Shown in pieces: positions 14,061-44,406 of a DNA stretch of 44,406 bases (positions are counted from its first letter, which is position 1; each line of letters starts with the position of its first letter). Where the stretch lies: IMG/VR virus record IMGVR_UViG_3300009702_000038, positions 1 to 44,406 of that record; one strand, written 5' to 3'. A model generated the notes under the pieces. That model was not told where the DNA came from and ran no database searches. It worked only from the letters and a program-made list of their open reading frames with translations. The position numbers were made by a program, and so were the translations under genes. Source of the stretch: a virus.

Positions 14061-14141
14061 ATGAGGCCGGAAGGACGTTGCCAACCAGGCCTCGGCGGCC
14101 ATAGAGCCCCTCGCTCGGGACAGGCGGGGGGCGTGCCGCTT

Positions 14142-15792: not shown

Positions 15793-15931
15793 CTTCCTGC
15801 TTCCCAACCCGGCTCCGGGGTAGTTTATTTTGCCATGTGCGGAGACAACTACGACAAGTTGCCCATCCGATATCAAAAGTATTCAGCATGATGGAGTGTC
15901 CTCCACACCAGGGGCATTTGTAACGTTTCAT
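15779..15931 (-). CDS. Zinc-ribbon small protein (50 aa)
   Basis: MKRYKCPWCGG...CRSC (two CxxC pairs). ATGA overlap with the stop of the upstream GNAT fragment. GGGAG-type SD. Confidence 0.5.
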   Translation of the reverse strand: MKRYKCPWCGGHSIMLNTFDIGWATCRSCLRTWQNKLPRSRVGKQEDEQA

Positions 15932-16200
15932 CTTCCCGACTCCCATCCTGGTGCCAACGAAGTGTACTTGAACCACGGCCAGGCCGTCATATTGTTCCGG
16001 CGCATAGCGGCCTGATAAATAGGCTTCTTCGCGGCGCCCGTGCCGAAGGTGTAGAGGATATTGTCGTCCTCTTTGATGAGGAAGTCCCGCTTGTAGCGGT
16101 TGAGGAGCATGGTGGCTACGCCCGTGTTCCAATACTTCTTCTTGACTTGAAGCCAATGCAGGTAGTTGATTTGCACCTGGGGAGGCCCCTTCCAGTACAC
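15928..16200 (-). CDS. GNAT N-acetyltransferase, C-terminal fragment (motif A region)
   Basis: Contains ...INYLHWLQVKKKYWNTGVATMLL (GNAT acetyl-CoA-binding motif A). It is in the same frame as 16204..16443, separated only by TAA plus one codon. Confidence 0.7.
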   Translation of the reverse strand: MYWKGPPQVQINYLHWLQVKKKYWNTGVATMLLNRYKRDFLIKEDDNILYTFGTGAAKKPIYQAAMRRNNMTAWPWFKYTSLAPGWESGR

Positions 16201-16203
16201 GGG

Positions 16204-16443
16204 TTACCCGCAGAGGTAGCCCTTTATCAGGTGGGGCGCTCCAGCCTCGCACGCGATGTAGAGGGCCTGGGCGGCGCTACTGCGGCTGATAATCTCGTCC
16301 AGCATGAGATGGGCGTGTCGGAAATACTCGTCTCGAATGATGCCCGGCCAGCTCATCTCCGGGCTGCGCTCCCATGTGAGCTGCCACGAGGACAGAATAT
16401 AGTCTAGGTCTCCTCGCTCGGCGGGACGAATCTCGGTGGTCAT
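16204..16443 (-). CDS. GNAT N-acetyltransferase, N-terminal fragment ending at the in-frame TAA 16204..16206
   Basis: MTTEIRPAERGDLDYILSSW... is a typical GNAT N-terminus. ATGA-coupled start. Confidence 0.7.
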   Translation of the reverse strand: MTTEIRPAERGDLDYILSSWQLTWERSPEMSWPGIIRDEYFRHAHLMLDEIISRSSAAQALYIACEAGAPHLIKGYLCG

Positions 16444-16962: not shown

Positions 16963-17709
16963 CTAGATGAAAGTTTCTCCCTTACGGAGAAAGCCGTGCT
17001 TGACATCTCTCGCATAGTCTCTCGGCTGGTGGGCATCTATCCTCTCGTTCATGCGCTCCTCGAACCGGCCTTGCTCCGTGCCCTTGGCTCGGGGGTCAGT
17101 CTCTTTCCAGGGGATGTACTTTGGGTGATACTCCAGGCCCTTCGCCGCCCACTTCAGGGCGTCAACAAACTGGGAAAACTGGCTGCCCTGAATAAATCGG
17201 GGGGAGTTTTTGAGCTTCTGCGCATAGTTTATCACGTACTGGTCAATGGCGTTCTCGCTGTACATCCCACCCCACTGGTTGATGCGCTTCAAAATCTCCC
17301 GCGCCTTGCCCACTTGCTTCAGCGGAATCTGATTCTGTGCCGGGCCTTCGGGAATGTCTATCATGCCCTGCGCCTGCATCTGTGTGTCCAGCGCATCGCT
17401 CTTGTCCCACTCTGCCTGGGTCTGGGGGGTGCGGGGGCCTGCGTGGGCGTACTGGGCCTGGATGGCGGCCTCCTCGGCGTCCCACTTGGCGTCGTCAATC
17501 TCGTCCTGCCTGGCCTGCGCCTCTTCCTCTTCGCTCTGCTTTTCGACGAGGCCTCTGCCGATAGGGTCCTTCGACACGAGTGGGGAAAGGGTGGACTCGA
17601 TGGCGCCCTCCTGCTTCCACTCGTCCTTACGCTGTGCCCGGTCTACCTGCGACAGCATGTCCCACGAGAGGGCGGGGGCCTGTGCCTGGTCGGGTTGCGG
17701 GTCGGGCAT
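16963..17709 (-). CDS. Hypothetical protein (248 aa), first gene of the late block
   Basis: Long ORF with protein-like composition, at the start of the collinear minus-strand late gene run. Confidence 0.7.
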   Translation of the reverse strand: MPDPQPDQAQAPALSWDMLSQVDRAQRKDEWKQEGAIESTLSPLVSKDPIGRGLVEKQSEEEEAQARQDEIDDAKWDAEEAAIQAQYAHAGPRTPQTQAEWDKSDALDTQMQAQGMIDIPEGPAQNQIPLKQVGKAREILKRINQWGGMYSENAIDQYVINYAQKLKNSPRFIQGSQFSQFVDALKWAAKGLEYHPKYIPWKETDPRAKGTEQGRFEERMNERIDAHQPRDYARDVKHGFLRKGETFI

Positions 17710-17770
17710 CTGTGCCAGAGGGCTTGCGGCTGATTCACCCCATATCTGTTCAAGATTTGTAACTTGCTAC

Positions 17771-17799
17771 AAAAACACCCTATTTTAGGGGGTAGGGTG
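17771..17799 (-). terminator. Intrinsic terminator-like hairpin (minus strand) 62 nt upstream of the late block
   Basis: Read on the minus strand: CACCCTA-N10-TAGGGTG followed by TTTTTG. Confidence 0.5.
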
Positions 17800-18318
17800 C
17801 CAAAATCGTCAGCCGTGGTCCCTCTGTTCAGACGACCCCCTACTTCCTAGGCACTTCAATCCTGCAAGATAACCTAGACGTTGGTCGGAGGTGTATTAGT
17901 ATCGTCTAATGTCCCTCTTAGAGTAGTATCTCTATTCTATTAGGAGTACTTCTATACTAATAAAGATTCTCTAACTTCCCGTAACTACTAGTAAAGTTTA
18001 TCTTACTATTAGGGGACGGAAAAGGGGGCTCTTTGGTGTTGCTTGTGGTGTTGACGCCCTAAGTAACCCTTATGGTAAGTCACTTTTGGTTCTCAGGGGA
18101 GAGAGTGGGTTACTCGCTACCGCTCGTGTGCGATTCTTTACCAGTAGGGGGAACACCTACCCGTGGGGGGTTGTGCGATGGAAGTGTTGTCAAGGATAAT
18201 CGACTATTGAATGTCGTTTTCATAAAAAGTTGAGATATCCCTTGACATTGGGCGGGAAGGTGTGCTAGTCGGTGAGATAATCGTTGACTGGGGTGGGGAT
18301 TTATGCTATTAGACGCAG

Positions 18319-18346
18319 AAAAACCCCTTGTCGTAGTGACAAGAGG
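18319..18346 (-). terminator. Intrinsic terminator-like hairpin (minus strand)
   Basis: Read on the minus strand: CTTGTC-ACTAC-GACAAG, then GGGG, then TTTTT. Confidence 0.55.
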
Positions 18347-18513
18347 CTAAAGAATGGTGATTTGGGGGCGTTACACCCCCCTGAAACTATTAGCTTTTCC
18401 CTGTTGACTATCTCCCCACACTTTGCTAGCGAACCTGGGGAGTGAGAATCGGCTGCCACGAAGGCACGTAGTGACGTGGCCCTGGTGAAGGTCTATCAAG
18501 AGGACAATGGGCC

Positions 18514-18550
18514 GAAACAAAAGCCCCACACTTATTCAAAAGTGCAGGGC
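18514..18550 (-). terminator. Intrinsic terminator ending the early/middle minus-strand block
   Basis: Read on the minus strand: GCCCTGCACTT-TTGAAT-AAGTGTGGGGC (11 bp including two G-U pairs) followed by TTTTGTTTC. Lies about 130 nt after the last early ORF. Confidence 0.65.
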
Positions 18551-18682
18551 CTTCGTGTCGTTACGCCTAGCGCGTGTCGTCCGGTAGTGTCCACCATGCT
18601 ATGACGACTAAGAGCATGATGGCTGTGAAAAGGCTCAATCTAGTCCGCTCCCTCCTGTTCTGACGCTAGCTCGTTCATGACG

Positions 18683-18946
18683 TTACTCCCCGTCTTTCAA
18701 TGTGGCGGTTGCTTGCCAAGCTACGAAGTTGAGATTGCCCGCCAGTCGTTGCGCGTCCTGCGCTGAGAGTATCGCAAAGACACGAGTAGCGGCCTTTGGT
18801 AGTGGGTAGCGTTCTAGCGCTGCCTCGCGTGTGCCTCGTGGCCCCTCAATCTCTAGACATATGTGCCCAGGCTTCGTAGCGGCAACGGTGACAACGGAGT
18901 ACCACCCATCGGCGTCTTGGAATACTAGCTGTTCAAAATCTCTCAT
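18683..18946 (-). CDS. Hypothetical protein (87 aa)
   Basis: ORF coupled to the upstream gene by a 4-nt overlap. Confidence 0.6.
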   Translation of the reverse strand: MRDFEQLVFQDADGWYSVVTVAATKPGHICLEIEGPRGTREAALERYPLPKAATRVFAILSAQDAQRLAGNLNFVAWQATATLKDGE

Positions 18947-19574: not shown

Positions 19575-19994
19575 TTACAGGTCCTCATCGTCCAACTCGC
19601 TCACTGTCCACACGTTCCACCCGATGGTCCGCAAGCAGGCGTCCCACCCGCGCTCTGCAATCTCTGCAAGAGTGTCGCATGGGTCGATGTCGATGTCGCG
19701 CGTGTCGAAGTCCAAGCAAGAAAAATCGTTGACTGCTTCGTCCGCGCCCGCTTGCCGTGCGTCGTTCACGTACTGCAAAAGATTCTCACGCGCGGCAAGG
19801 GCAGCAAGGGTAAAGATTTCCTCGATTGCGTCGGAGAGGTCACGCGGCGCGAGTAGCAACACCTTATCAATCGCGTCGGAGATAGGCTCACCCACGCATC
19901 CTAACCGATTCCGGTAACCTCTGTTCTTATCCAACCGTGCCTTCTCGGCTCGCCAGCATTCAATCGTGTTTCCACTGTCTAGTTTGTTTTCCAT
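19575..19994 (-). CDS. Hypothetical acidic protein (139 aa)
   Basis: ORF with protein-like composition. Confidence 0.6.
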   Translation of the reverse strand: MENKLDSGNTIECWRAEKARLDKNRGYRNRLGCVGEPISDAIDKVLLLAPRDLSDAIEEIFTLAALAARENLLQYVNDARQAGADEAVNDFSCLDFDTRDIDIDPCDTLAEIAERGWDACLRTIGWNVWTVSELDDEDL

Positions 19995-20016: not shown

Positions 20017-20421
20017 CTACCGGACTACGTACACGTCCCCGTCAATGATGCTGCAATCCTCGCCATGTCCGCGCTCAGCAACTCGCTGAAACGTTCCTAT
20101 GATGGCACTGCACTCTGTCTCGCACTCTACCAACTCCGCCGCGTCGTCACCGTGCACGACTAGGATACTGTCTTGATTGTACCGCCCCGCAAGGTCACGA
20201 GCGTAGTCAATCGCTTCCAGAATGTGTCCGGGGCGGGCAAAAGCGATGATTGCAGACTCTGGACGTTCATCAAAGATGCCATCGCACTCCCTTACCGTGT
20301 CGAAGTGTTCACACCGCTCTGCATCGTCGAACGCCGCGAGGGTACACATAGCGTTATCCACAACGGTTCGCTCCGGGCGTTCCGCACTGAAAAAAATCTT
20401 TGTCGCTTTGATATGTCTCAT
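20017..20421 (-). CDS. Hypothetical protein (134 aa)
   Basis: ATG 20421 with GGAGGA 8 nt upstream (the ORF track extends to 20463). Confidence 0.6.
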   Translation of the reverse strand: MRHIKATKIFFSAERPERTVVDNAMCTLAAFDDAERCEHFDTVRECDGIFDERPESAIIAFARPGHILEAIDYARDLAGRYNQDSILVVHGDDAAELVECETECSAIIGTFQRVAERGHGEDCSIIDGDVYVVR

Positions 20422-20459
20422 CTTCGTATCCTCCTGTTCAGCTAATAACCGTTTGTCTC

Positions 20460-20681
20460 TCAAAATGTAGGGGCGTCGAACAAATCGAACAAATCGCTAG
20501 GATGGTTCGCCGCTCGTTCCGAGTCAACTCTGCGCAGTCCGTCGATGCCATCATAGCGAGGGACGAACGCTGCGCCGTCTTGGAAGTGGGGAACCTCACA
20601 CACTGGACAGAACGGTTCGTTTCGTTCCGTGCCACATGCGAGGCACACAAGGTGGAAGTTAGTCAACACGTAGTACTTCAT
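20460..20681 (-). CDS. Small Cys-rich (zinc-ribbon-like) protein (73 aa)
   Basis: CLACG...CPVC pairs. ATGA overlap with the sigma-factor stop. Confidence 0.55.
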   Translation of the reverse strand: MKYYVLTNFHLVCLACGTERNEPFCPVCEVPHFQDGAAFVPRYDGIDGLRRVDSERAANHPSDLFDLFDAPTF

Positions 20682-21190
20682 AGCACGGCCTTTCGCAGTT
20701 GATTTTTGAGTTGGGACACGCGGCCCGGAGAGAGGCCTAGCTGCTTGGCTACGTCCTGTCCGCTGTAGCCTTGGTAGGTTAGCTCAGCCACGGTGCGCAG
20801 GGCGGTAGGAAGGGCGTCTAGGCGCTCCCTTGCATCGTACAGCGTCAAGGCGTCACTGTCTGCGCTGGCGTGCTGTTCCGTGTCAGTGTGGACAGTCGCA
20901 TCATGATGCTTGGCTACTGTCCTCTTGAGGTAGTTAGCGACGGCCCATCGGATGCGCTGCTTTGCGTATGCCTCAAAAGGAACGCCCCGCGCCGCGTCGA
21001 AGGCCTTTACCGCCGCGAGTAAGCCAAGAGCGCCTTCCTGTATAAGGTCGTCACGGTGCCCCGTGCGCTCGCTGGCGATGACAACTAGCAGACCCTCAAA
21101 TCTGCCATAGATGCGAGCAAAGGTCCGCTCGTCCGGCTTAGCTTAGTAACGCTGGACTAGCTCGGCTAGTGTCTCTTGGGTCTGTTTCAT
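20678..21190 (-). CDS. Sigma-70-family (group 4/ECF-like, regions 2 and 4) sigma factor with an in-frame TAA at 21143..21145
   Basis: Manual translation: MKQTQETLAELVQRY*AKPDERTFARIYGRFEGLL...DDLIQEGALGLLAAVKAFD...FEAYAKQRIRWAV (region 2) ...ELTYQGYSGQDVAKQLGLSPGRVSQL (region 4 HTH). There is no ATG/GTG/TTG between the TAA and region 2, so the gene is absent from the ORF track. Confidence 0.75.
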
Positions 21191-21801
21191 CGTCCGTTCC
21201 CCTCTTTGTTGAATGCCAGTTGTTCACGCCATTGGGCGCGGTCTGCTTCTGTCCTGCAATGGGGCTCCCATATGTACTTTCGCCCCGTCGCCATACTCCA
21301 AGCCTGACACTGAGCCATCTCCCAACGGATACGGACGAACCTAGTGTCTCGTGTCTTGGGAAGCTCGGAAAACTTGCGATTGCTGCTCCCTGAAAACCAG
21401 TCGCGGAACGTTCCGTCATTCAATGGTTGGTCAAGTATCCCGGGATTCTCAACAATGATGCGGGCGAGGTCCGTCAAGAGGTCGGCTACTTCGGCGCGTT
21501 GTTTGGCGACCTTGGCGATGGCCCTGCGCTTGCGGTCAATGGCCTTGCGGCCATCTAGGAGCGTCTTGTCCGCCGTCTTGGCTACGCAACTGCTACCGAC
21601 TCGGAACCGGTTCCCACCCGCTTCCGCGATGACATAGGCGTTTTTGATGGCGGTTCCGCAATGGTCGCATACGCCCCCCGCCTGCTCTGGCGCACCTGGC
21701 GCTGCACGGAAACCAAGATGCTCGAAACCGACGACGCGGAAAGGTGCAACTCCGCAACCAGTAGACTCAAAAGGATGGATTTTTGATTTTTCAGTTTTCA
21801 T
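21187..21801 (-). CDS. Hypothetical protein (204 aa)
   Basis: ORF. Its stop overlaps the ATG of the sigma-factor leader (ATGA). Confidence 0.65.
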   Translation of the reverse strand: MKTEKSKIHPFESTGCGVAPFRVVGFEHLGFRAAPGAPEQAGGVCDHCGTAIKNAYVIAEAGGNRFRVGSSCVAKTADKTLLDGRKAIDRKRRAIAKVAKQRAEVADLLTDLARIIVENPGILDQPLNDGTFRDWFSGSSNRKFSELPKTRDTRFVRIRWEMAQCQAWSMATGRKYIWEPHCRTEADRAQWREQLAFNKEGNGR

Positions 21802-30547: not shown

Positions 30548-31252
30548 CTCGGCGGCAAACTCCTCGTTCACGCAGTCCAGCGTCGTGAGCCACGCAGGGT
30601 CTTGCTCGATGATGAAGGGGCGCAAGTCCCAGAACAACCTCCACGGCTCTCGTGGGTACTTGAATATACACTCAGCGGCGATAACGCCGAAGTCCAACTC
30701 TAGCACGGCGAGCTGCGTGCGGACCTGGTTGATGTAGTAGGGGGGAACCTCACCCCTCGCCCATCCTACGCTGATACTCTTCTTGATTTCTAGAATCGTC
30801 TTTTCGTTCTTCCCTAAACGTGACAGCCCGTGCAGCGTTGCCTCTACCTGCCTAGGGTCTTGGCAGTACTCAACCTCTGGCTGCGTGATGGGGTCGAAGC
30901 CTATGAAGGCGTCCACCGTGACACTGACGTTAGGCCAGCGGTCGTTCACGAACATGCTGTTGTCCGGCTCGGGGCACGCCAGCATCTCCCCGACCTTCTC
31001 GATGATGCACTTCTCATCGTGGGCGCCGTGGTTTATGCTGATTCGAGGGCACTGGTCAAACTCTTTGTCGATGCCCTCCAGCTTCTCCGCAAGGATAGAC
31101 TCTCGCGTGTTGTCTTCGAAGTACCAAGCGTACTTCTTAGGGAGCGCAGAGGGGCCAATCCAACCCGTGATGGCAGACGCCGTGATGTAGTTTCGGCGCA
31201 GCTCTAACCACTCTTCGCGGTCATCAGCTGTGCCCACCCGTTTTATTCCCAT
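30530..31252 (-). CDS. YqaJ/lambda-Exo-type PD-(D/E)XK recombination exonuclease (240 aa)
   Basis: EWLELRRNYITASAI (YqaJ N-terminal pattern), ILEIKKS (ExK), YYINQVRTQL. Paired with the ERF gene. Confidence 0.75.
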   Translation of the reverse strand: MGIKRVGTADDREEWLELRRNYITASAITGWIGPSALPKKYAWYFEDNTRESILAEKLEGIDKEFDQCPRISINHGAHDEKCIIEKVGEMLACPEPDNSMFVNDRWPNVSVTVDAFIGFDPITQPEVEYCQDPRQVEATLHGLSRLGKNEKTILEIKKSISVGWARGEVPPYYINQVRTQLAVLELDFGVIAAECIFKYPREPWRLFWDLRPFIIEQDPAWLTTLDCVNEEFAAELNNRG

Positions 31253-31505: not shown

Positions 31506-31955
31506 ATGCACGAAGGTAAAGCGGTTTTCAGTGATGAGTGCAAAGAGGAAATCAGGGAGCGCTGGCCGGACATCTGCCCGGAGTGTGGGTTCATCGCATA
31601 CATCGGAATGAATCAAGTCTCCTGCGTCAATGTGGAGTGCCGGAACGGTGTGCAGAAAGAGCGTGATGACTACGACGCATTGGTTGAAGCGGACAAACAG
31701 CGAAGTACACCCCTGTCCCTCCTAGAAACTCGCGATACCCTCCCCCCTGCTCTCCCCTCGCTCGGCTGGCGCCACACCGTTGCCCACGACAAGCCTATGA
31801 AACACACGGTAGGAGAGTGGTGGTATCAGCTAGAGCCAGGAGAGGGACAGAATGTGAACATTGGCGATTTATATTTATCTTGTGTCAACGGAGCGGATTA
31901 TGTGGTAGCCAGCGTAGACCGCTGTACCGATGTTATTTCCCTACGGCTCAACTAA
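31506..31955 (+). CDS. Hypothetical protein with an N-terminal zinc ribbon (149 aa)
   Basis: CPECG...CVNVEC. SD GGAAGGG upstream. Confidence 0.65.
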   Translation: MHEGKAVFSDECKEEIRERWPDICPECGFIAYIGMNQVSCVNVECRNGVQKERDDYDALVEADKQRSTPLSLLETRDTLPPALPSLGWRHTVAHDKPMKHTVGEWWYQLEPGEGQNVNIGDLYLSCVNGADYVVASVDRCTDVISLRLN

Positions 31956-32004: not shown

Positions 32005-32223
32005 ATGGCCCTGAACGACAACCGCGATGAAGTGTGTGAGCTGACCCAAGACTGGGCGTTCGTGGACTCATGGAGCGTGGGAGAGGGTCAAAGCGGCACG
32101 AGGAGAGTATCCCCCTGGGAGTCTACAAGACGTACCGCGATGGCGCTGCCAAGGCTAACGCCTGGCTCAAGGCTACCTCTGGCTCCCTGCGTTGGGAAGC
32201 GGAGAGAATCTACAAACCACTGA
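32005..32223 (+). CDS. Hypothetical small protein (72 aa). Only the first half looks protein-like.
   Basis: The ATG abuts element E3. The N-terminal part MALNDNRDEVCELTQDWAFVDSW is plausible. The C-terminal part is Arg/Ser/Pro-rich and looks like an off-frame read. Confidence 0.4.
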   Translation: MALNDNRDEVCELTQDWAFVDSWSVGEGQSGTRRVSPWESTRRTAMALPRLTPGSRLPLAPCVGKRRESTNH

Positions 32224-43156: not shown

Positions 43157-44406
43157 TAGTAACTCTGAAGCCGTTGCGTGAAGGTGAAGGCGTTATCGCC
43201 ATCTTGGGGGTGTTCTTGGTGGAAATGACCGTTGGGGCTTCCTCCCACGGCCTGAGCTTGCTGTTCGTTTTGCGCGTAGTTGCTCTGTAGCTGCATGATA
43301 ACCTCGCCGCTGCTAATCGGGTCACCACCGCCTAGAAACTTGGTAACACCCTTGTAGGTTGCGCGGGGGGTAGTGATAGGGTCCATCTTGTCGAGGAGCT
43401 GAGACAGGAGGACGGAAAGCTCAGCGTACATCGAGGGTCGCGTGACGCGCACAGAATCAATCATGTCCTGCGTGACCTCGCCGGTCGTCGCTGCGTAGGC
43501 CACGTCAATAGGGTCAACCATCGCGGCGAACGTCTCTGCAAAGCGCTGTGCCTTCTCTCTGTTCGGCGGCCTGTTCTTTCCGTAGAGGGTGCGGTCAACA
43601 CGGCCTAGCTTGTTCGCTAGGAAATACAGCGCTTGGGTGGACTGCACGCCCGCCATGTTATGAACCTCGATGCTCTGCGATTCTTGTGAGAGGAAGGGCT
43701 GTAGCTCTTGCGCCAGGTGCTCAGGGTTGCCCACGAGCATCGGAATCTTTTCCTGCATCTGCATGAACATGTGCTGCTTCTCCTCCATCGGAGTCTCTTT
43801 CAAGATGCGGAGAGAGCGGTTGACGTACAGGGGAATCTTGCCGGACCGGATAAGCATATCTCCGAAGTCCACAAACTGCTTGAAGCGATGGGCAATCTCG
43901 TCAGCACGCCCCTCCATGCGGGCTTCAAGGGCGCCTGCTGTCTCAACGTCTCCGGCCTTCACCTTCTCGAAGCGGGCTTTGTGATTGATAGCCGCACTCT
44001 TCCGTGCTTTGTTGAGCTTCACTGCATCAACGTAGGCCACCTTGCCTGTCACGAGAGCATCCTCTACGCGGTCGAGCGTGTTAGTGATGCCCCGGAGCTG
44101 GTTGAAGTCTAGGAGGCCGGAGGCGTGCAGATGGTCGAGACCGCCGCGCACTTCACCTATGGCGTGGTCGAGAGCCGTCAAGTCTGTCCCATCGGGAATC
44201 TTGGAAAGGTCGTCGGGAATGTCGAGCCTGCGCAGCTCAGAGAAGCCATCGGAAAGACGGTCGATGCCTTTGTTCAAGTTACGCGCCTGCTCCAGGGCCT
44301 TCCCGGTGCCCCAGATAGTCGTATCCTCGGTAATCGTGCGGAGTGCTTCGTCGAGCCCCTTAGTTGCGCGGTTGCCAACCTTCCCCTTGAGGGCCAAGTC
44401 GAGCCG
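43156..44406 (-). CDS. C-terminal part of the junction-spanning internal-virion/ejection-type protein (see 1..1461)
   Basis: The ORF stays open to the right window edge. The track start at 44397 is an internal TTG. The stop is in a TAATG overlap with the tail-fibre start. Confidence 0.7.
   Translation of the reverse strand, partial: RLDLALKGKVGNRATKGLDEALRTITEDTTIWGTGKALEQARNLNKGIDRLSDGFSELRRLDIPDDLSKIPDGTDLTALDHAIGEVRGGLDHLHASGLLDFNQLRGITNTLDRVEDALVTGKVAYVDAVKLNKARKSAAINHKARFEKVKAGDVETAGALEARMEGRADEIAHRFKQFVDFGDMLIRSGKIPLYVNRSLRILKETPMEEKQHMFMQMQEKIPMLVGNPEHLAQELQPFLSQESQSIEVHNMAGVQSTQALYFLANKLGRVDRTLYGKNRPPNREKAQRFAETFAAMVDPIDVAYAATTGEVTQDMIDSVRVTRPSMYAELSVLLSQLLDKMDPITTPRATYKGVTKFLGGGDPISSGEVIMQLQSNYAQNEQQAQAVGGSPNGHFHQEHPQDGDNAFTFTQRLQSY
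44284..44406. repeat. Terminal direct repeat (right copy), identical to 1..123
   Basis: Direct comparison of both window ends. Confidence 0.95.

Follow-up and report, generated by a model that had tools for sequence, protein, structure and literature searches.

The in-frame TAA that interrupts a sigma-70-family gene of this phage is best explained as a non-programmed point lesion specific to the window (the whole 44,406-nt stretch of DNA analysed here), a reading to which we give a probability of about 0.88. The gene lies on the minus strand (21190..20678), has 170 codons, and encodes sigma2 and sigma4 without region 3. The interruption is at codon 16 (21145..21143, minus strand) and results from a C>T change at 21145, where a near-identical sibling and all the relatives have CAA (Gln). 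The original prediction had favoured ochre readthrough or suppression and had named a nonsense-inactivated gene or a sequencing error as the alternatives; it is these alternatives that the CAA of the sibling and relatives supports. The CAA>TAA change at the conserved Gln16 is part of a set of lesions, G/C>A/T substitutions plus two small deletions, that separates the window from its sibling, and the same set accounts for a GAA>TAA change in a GNAT-like gene and for a frameshift in a third gene. The feature is an ordinary ochre nonsense change, or an error.

The layout of the gene is as it had been described. Translated from the ATG at 21190, the frame reads MKQTQETLAELVQRY*AKPDERTF...RKAVL*. 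The first stop, in the nucleotide context CGT TAC TAA GCT AAG, is followed in the same frame by AKPDERTFARIYGRF..., and the frame terminates at the TGA at 20680..20678. Both ends of the gene overlap a neighbour on the same strand in an ATGA: the sigma ATG overlaps the TGA of an upstream 204-aa gene of unknown function (21187..21801, minus strand), and the sigma TGA overlaps the ATG of a downstream 73-aa gene with a weak zinc-ribbon/RING-like match (20460..20681, minus strand). The statement that no alternative canonical start exists also holds, the first ATG, GTG or TTG in frame past the TAA being a TTG at 20848 (codon 115). A start at this TTG would leave only a 56-aa region-4 fragment of the sigma factor. 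Before the end of region 2, the non-canonical in-frame start candidates are ATC27, CTG34 and ATC38 only.

A protein search revealed what the intact gene looks like. It returned a 170-aa protein (P0001) that is identical to the conceptual sigma translation of the window, save for a Gln at position 16. This protein is encoded on a 44,428-bp ENA contig (ERZ27249683 k141_1329824) and on a Logan contig (SRR6056608_114578); the two sibling assemblies may share one sample and may count as one witness. Three further proteins, encoded on four contigs, show 67 % (P0002), 54 % (P0003) and 47 % (P0004) identity to the sigma factor, with length and start unchanged, and have Gln at position 16 in the contexts RYQ, RFQ and AFQ, respectively. 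At the DNA level, codon 16 is CAA in the sibling and in five further relatives (L004, L005, L006, L007 and L008, the last being an IMG/VR contig at 63 % identity), which span 47–67 % protein identity to the sigma factor. When IMG/VR was scanned for exact copies of the codon-16 site, neither allele was matched. The comparison with orthologous genes that had been suggested as a check therefore finds a sense codon at this site in the sibling and in all five further relatives, the very outcome that had been named in advance as refuting ochre readthrough as a control of dosage or timing.

The residues that precede the stop had been said to read like a normal N-terminus, and they are one. Residues 1–15 are conserved among the relatives, with L8, L11 and V12 invariant. 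Because these residues are conserved and the start is the same, the stop falls inside the conserved protein and not in a leader. The N-terminus before the stop looks normal because the substitution of one base alters neither the frame nor the residues on either side.

The assignment of the gene to the phage sigma-70 family stands as well. Region 2, which serves core binding and -10 recognition, matches Pfam Sigma70_r2 (PF04542) at residues 30–90 with 41.1 bits (cutoff 24), and the NCBIfam superfamily model TIGR02937, a whole-protein model of regions 2 and 4, matches residues 35–168 with 59.4 bits (cutoff 42.9). The protein also matches phrog_351, the phage family "RNA polymerase sigma factor" (E = 9e-22). 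Region 4 by itself remains under the Pfam cutoffs (22.7 versus 25.7 bits for PF08281 and 20.7 versus 24.1 bits for PF04545), and its GRVSQ motif is invariant across the relatives. The top matches among solved structures are WhiG and FliA. Region 2 resembles that of the group 3 FliA/WhiG-like sigma factors, but the protein has a two-domain, ECF-like size (170 aa) and no region 3. Membership of the FliA/WhiG subfamily was rejected, the TIGR02479 score of 64.2 bits being far under the cutoff of 189.6, and so was membership of the SigB/F/G subfamily (43.6 bits for TIGR02980, cutoff 234).

Matches to the sigma protein in known phages are distant (24–46 % identity). We found no relatives of it in 185,579 species genomes, whether as host or as prophage genes, and no DNA-level relatives of the phage among 50,697 phage records (GenBank phages). 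The gene adds a new member to the sigma-70 family, one whose relatives are seen on metagenomic phage contigs only. In its intact 170-aa form, the sigma factor of the sibling presumably redirects the host RNA polymerase to phage promoters.

The sigma block is part of a same-strand run of genes, with the replication genes on one side and the terminase and structural genes on the other. Two genes downstream of the sigma gene (20017-20463, minus strand) lies a gene of the S-adenosylmethionine lyase family (Pfam PF23780, E = 3e-12), and two of the relatives (L004 and L007) share the order sigma factor, small Cys-rich protein, SAM lyase. This order suggests an anti-restriction or host-takeover module. 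The 73-aa protein in between (20460-20681) has two CxxC pairs and weak RING/zinc-ribbon matches, and may be a partner of the sigma factor or regulate it. The relatives have a gene of similar size (75–80 aa) at this position.

The sibling provides the context in which the stop can be interpreted. Three loci, L001 from the ENA contig and L002 and L003 from the Logan contig (SRR6056608_114578), jointly cover the whole window, which is a circular permutation of these contigs at about 99.96 % identity. Its first 123 nt (1-123) are identical to its last 123 nt (44284-44406), and an 862-aa gene of the sibling spans the ends of the window, which is cut inside this gene. The matching ends and the circular permutation indicate that the phage genome is complete in the window, circular or terminally redundant, and ~44,283 bp long.

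Between the window and the sibling there are 13 substitutions and two deletions, one of 1 bp and one of 3 bp. All 13 substitutions have G/C in the sibling and A/T in the window, with ten transitions (C>T or G>A) and three transversions (G>T or C>A). Seven are synonymous (at 21140, 19934, 19929, 19917, 11745, 32066 and 3575), three are missense (P689S in the 862-aa gene, A524V in a 1201-aa gene and Q15K in a 174-aa gene), two are nonsense (Q16 of the sigma factor, CAA>TAA, and E80 of the GNAT-like protein, GAA>TAA at 16206), and one is intergenic (at 14111). The synonymous change at 21140 lies in the sigma gene itself, 5 nt 3' of the nonsense change on the minus strand (C>T, GCC>GCT, Ala17), and together the two convert the tandem pentamer CCAAGCCAAG into CTAAGCTAAG. 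Three other synonymous C>T changes (19934, 19929 and 19917) form a cluster at 19917..19934 (minus strand) in a 139-aa gene.

The two deletions have different consequences. The 1-bp deletion (at 32063, plus strand) occurs together with the substitution at 32066 at a CCC run (32063..32066) and splits a 106-aa gene of the sibling. This gene starts at 31930, its function is unknown, and its disruption is the third gene-breaking lesion of the window. Its window version is represented in the database by a 59-aa product only, which comes from the 44,406-bp contig. Since no homologue of the 106-aa protein exists beyond this phage, outgroups give no polarity for the 1-bp deletion. The 3-bp deletion (TCG, at 30969; 30966..30972, minus strand) is in frame, in a YqaJ-like exonuclease gene. 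We note that this gene adjoins a gene of the ERF-family recombinases.

The second TAA had been reported as a stop of the same kind in a GNAT gene, and it is found at 16206..16204, codon 80 of a gene of 171 codons (16443..15928, minus strand), where a G>T change has replaced GAA (Glu). Glu80 is invariant in 18 homologues. The support for calling this gene a GNAT is weak: Pfam GNAT (PF00583) remains below threshold (19.2 bits, cutoff 20.7, E = 0.0015), phrog_1249 (acetyltransferase) matches with E = 5.8e-5, and among the homologues two have precomputed PF00583 matches and some are named GNAT by JGI. The suggestion that the two TAAs share a cause is right in one sense, since both belong to one lesion set of 13 substitutions and two deletions, but the shared cause is not a recoding mechanism.

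The GNAT-like gene, the terminase gene and the structural genes are preceded by a 248-aa gene of unknown function (16963..17709). Between it and an 87-aa gene (18683..18946) lies a gene-free stretch of ~970 bp (17710-18682), which has no called gene in the sibling either. In this stretch there are neither Rfam matches nor tRNAs, and no repeats or promoter-like sites of note. Scans for promoters, terminators and repeats, both here and around the sigma gene, gave nothing above chance. The stretch could hold regulatory sites or an origin.

The direction of the substitutions tells which of the two sequences is altered. If the two lineages had shared the changes equally, all 13 going one way would have a chance of 1.2e-4. 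That all 13 are G/C>A/T thus identifies the window as the derived or altered state, and the outgroups concur at both stop sites, with CAA in the sigma relatives and an invariant Glu80 in the GNAT-like homologues. The changes are also clustered. Five C>T changes lie on the same strand, in a pair 5 nt apart (21145 and 21140) and a triplet within 18 nt (19934, 19929 and 19917), the pair and the triplet being ~1.2 kb apart. Four pairs of changes fall within 20 nt, and as many were obtained in 1 of 200,000 random placements. The triplet at 19917-19934 is, by its strand-coordinated clustering, reminiscent of single-strand cytosine deamination. The flanks of the mutated cytosines, inspected by eye for a deaminase or UV context, have mixed 5' neighbours (C, G, A and T) and no diagnostic motif. 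A motif-wide conversion at CCAAG, such as a methylation-linked base-calling error, was rejected because 152 CCAAG sites are unchanged in the window.

We computed the expected classes of change by applying the observed spectrum to all coding G/C sites of the genome. Stops are expected for 5.5 % of the changes, and the probability of two or more among 12 coding changes is 0.14. Since GC>AT changes turn both CAA and GAA into TAA, the two TAAs need no extra explanation. Synonymous changes are expected at 34 %, and seven or more among 12 have a probability of 0.08. Overall, the lesion set is compatible with largely unselected changes. Two observations do not sit easily with the point-lesion reading. 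Both stops are TAA, with no mix of stop codons, and the synonymous fraction (7 of the 12 coding changes) is somewhat above expectation. This excess hints at some real variation that has been through selection, in which case the two stops and the frameshift look out of character.

If the sigma TAA is a point lesion, translation of the gene would stop after 15 residues and yield a meaningless peptide, making the allele a predicted null. Basal readthrough of UAA in bacterial termination is very low, and beyond it the TAA allele would give no sigma factor. The downstream 73-aa gene would probably lose its translational coupling once translation of the sigma gene ends at codon 16. The lesions themselves look like the products of cytosine deamination or guanine oxidation, some of which may have struck several nearby bases on one strand.

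Within the point-lesion explanation, the changes may be real recent mutations of the phage haplotype or errors of the consensus, and we favour the former by a narrow margin. According to the latter, the TAA is absent from the phage DNA and was introduced into the consensus from a damaged template (deaminated C, oxidised G) or by thin coverage; we regard this as possible, at somewhat under even odds. The directions of all 13 substitutions are those made by deamination and 8-oxoG damage, and the strand-coordinated C>T clusters within 5–18 nt resemble lesions of single molecules. Three of the 15 differences break genes, and one lesion combines a substitution with a 1-bp deletion at a CCC run. The three window-specific products that were looked up, two of them truncated (a GNAT-like fragment and the 56-aa fragment of the sigma factor) and one with a missense change (the 174-aa protein with Q15K), are absent from every other contig of the collection. 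Yet the contig is a complete 44-kb circle whose 123-nt ends match, and such an assembly normally has the depth to outvote errors of single reads, which is why a real haplotype is favoured. A synonymous share of 7 in 12 is, if anything, higher than expected without selection.

A more elaborate scenario, which we hold improbable, is that of a real burst of strand-coordinated cytosine deamination or oxidation on a natural phage haplotype. Under it, the burst might stem from single-stranded intermediates of replication or recombination, or from the activity of a host DNA deaminase. Conserved genes of the haplotype would then bear ochre alleles in two cases and a frameshift in one, its persistence would be explained by complementation during co-infection or by an ochre-suppressor host, and the window would have captured hypermutation of a phage in nature.

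Slightly less probable still is that the TAA is read through or suppressed, whether as a programmed or a tolerated event, to make low levels of full-length sigma factor as a control of its dosage or timing. The sigma frame is indeed intact past the TAA and lacks a canonical restart, the GNAT-like gene bears the same stop codon, and a modest hairpin can be drawn just 3' of the stop. The fold of the 161 nt around the stop, whose context is UAA-G, is slightly better than that of shuffled sequences (z = -1.9). But the stop is missing from the 99.96 % sibling and from the five other relatives, which have CAA, and the sequence 3' of it equals that of the CAA-bearing sibling save for the one silent base at 21140. 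A 3' sequence common to the CAA-bearing sibling speaks against a stimulatory signal that arose along with the stop. Of the bacterial stop codons UAA is the least leaky; a phage example of readthrough, the A1 protein of Qbeta, uses a UGA. The two TAAs of the window moreover stand in place of different conserved residues, a Gln in one gene and an invariant Glu in the other, so that no single decoding event would restore both proteins. An efficient suppressor would extend many proteins, because 26 of 68 genes end in TAA. ARAGORN found no tRNA genes in the window, which rules out phage-encoded suppression by a tRNA of its own, and there are no Rfam matches in the window.

An unconventional rescue of the interrupted gene is very doubtful. 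It would consist either of re-initiation at ATC27, CTG34 or ATC38, or of a +3 hop of the peptidyl-tRNA-Tyr from UAC to UAA, and would give a slightly shortened sigma factor. The required codons are present, a GAGGG run precedes CTG34 and ATC38, and in E. coli short hops past a stop codon are known to occur, at low frequency. However, the GAGGG run is poorly spaced for either codon, some 1 nt from CTG34 and some 13 nt from ATC38. A protein begun at codon 34 or 38 would also lack the conserved residues 22–33 and the first part of the Pfam region 2, which begins at residue 30. The CAA of all relatives again leaves nothing that sets the site apart from a plain mutation. Such re-initiation or hopping may occur as trace events.

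Finally, two in-frame TAAs at conserved positions could be taken to mean that the phage code reads TAA as sense, but this has next to no probability: TAA terminates 26 of the 68 distinct genes in the gene calls of the sibling (38 %), a usage that rules out reassignment, TAATG-type overlaps occur between structural genes, neither site is a TAA in the sibling, the amino acid replaced is not the same at the two, and a suppressor tRNA is lacking from the window. A six-frame comparison of open reading frames with each stop codon taken as sense gave no discrimination in this GC-rich sequence.

The point-lesion reading has practical implications. An in-frame stop with a good frame on either side is the exact outcome of a one-base substitution, which calls for caution in the interpretation of such sites, and comparison with a near-identical sibling settles them. 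The gene is best annotated as a sigma-70-family factor disrupted at codon 16, with P0001 (170 aa) as its intact form, and the GNAT-like and 106-aa genes as likewise disrupted. The uniform G/C>A/T direction of the changes and their clustering on one strand make a useful flag of assembly quality. If reads confirm the lesions, the window will offer a modest instance, from nature, of deamination-type mutations that cluster in a phage genome.

How does this stop compare with known systems? In the Qbeta A1 system, as here, an in-frame stop is followed by an open and meaningful frame. The Qbeta stop, a UGA, is conserved and leaky, and both of its products are functional, whereas the stop of the window is a UAA that no relative shares and that comes after 15 codons, so that the short product would be a meaningless peptide. 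Programmed readthrough is defined by a stop conserved among orthologues, which is not the case for this TAA, and we rejected it. The reassigned codes of phages, TAG>Gln and TGA>Trp, offer another parallel, in that an in-frame stop is found where relatives have Gln. The codon of the window is instead TAA, a true terminator in 38 % of the genes, with no suppressor tRNA, and it occurs in frame at two sites only, both missing in the sibling. Reassignment of TAA, which is defined by the codon going unused as a terminator, was rejected accordingly. The closest likeness is to the classical ochre (UAA) alleles of phages, which also arise by a single first-position change from CAA or GAA to TAA in a gene that is otherwise intact, and in the G/C>A/T direction typical of deamination-type mutagenesis. 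They differ in origin: the classical alleles come from conditional-lethal genetics with selection on suppressor hosts, and those of the window from an environmental assembly.
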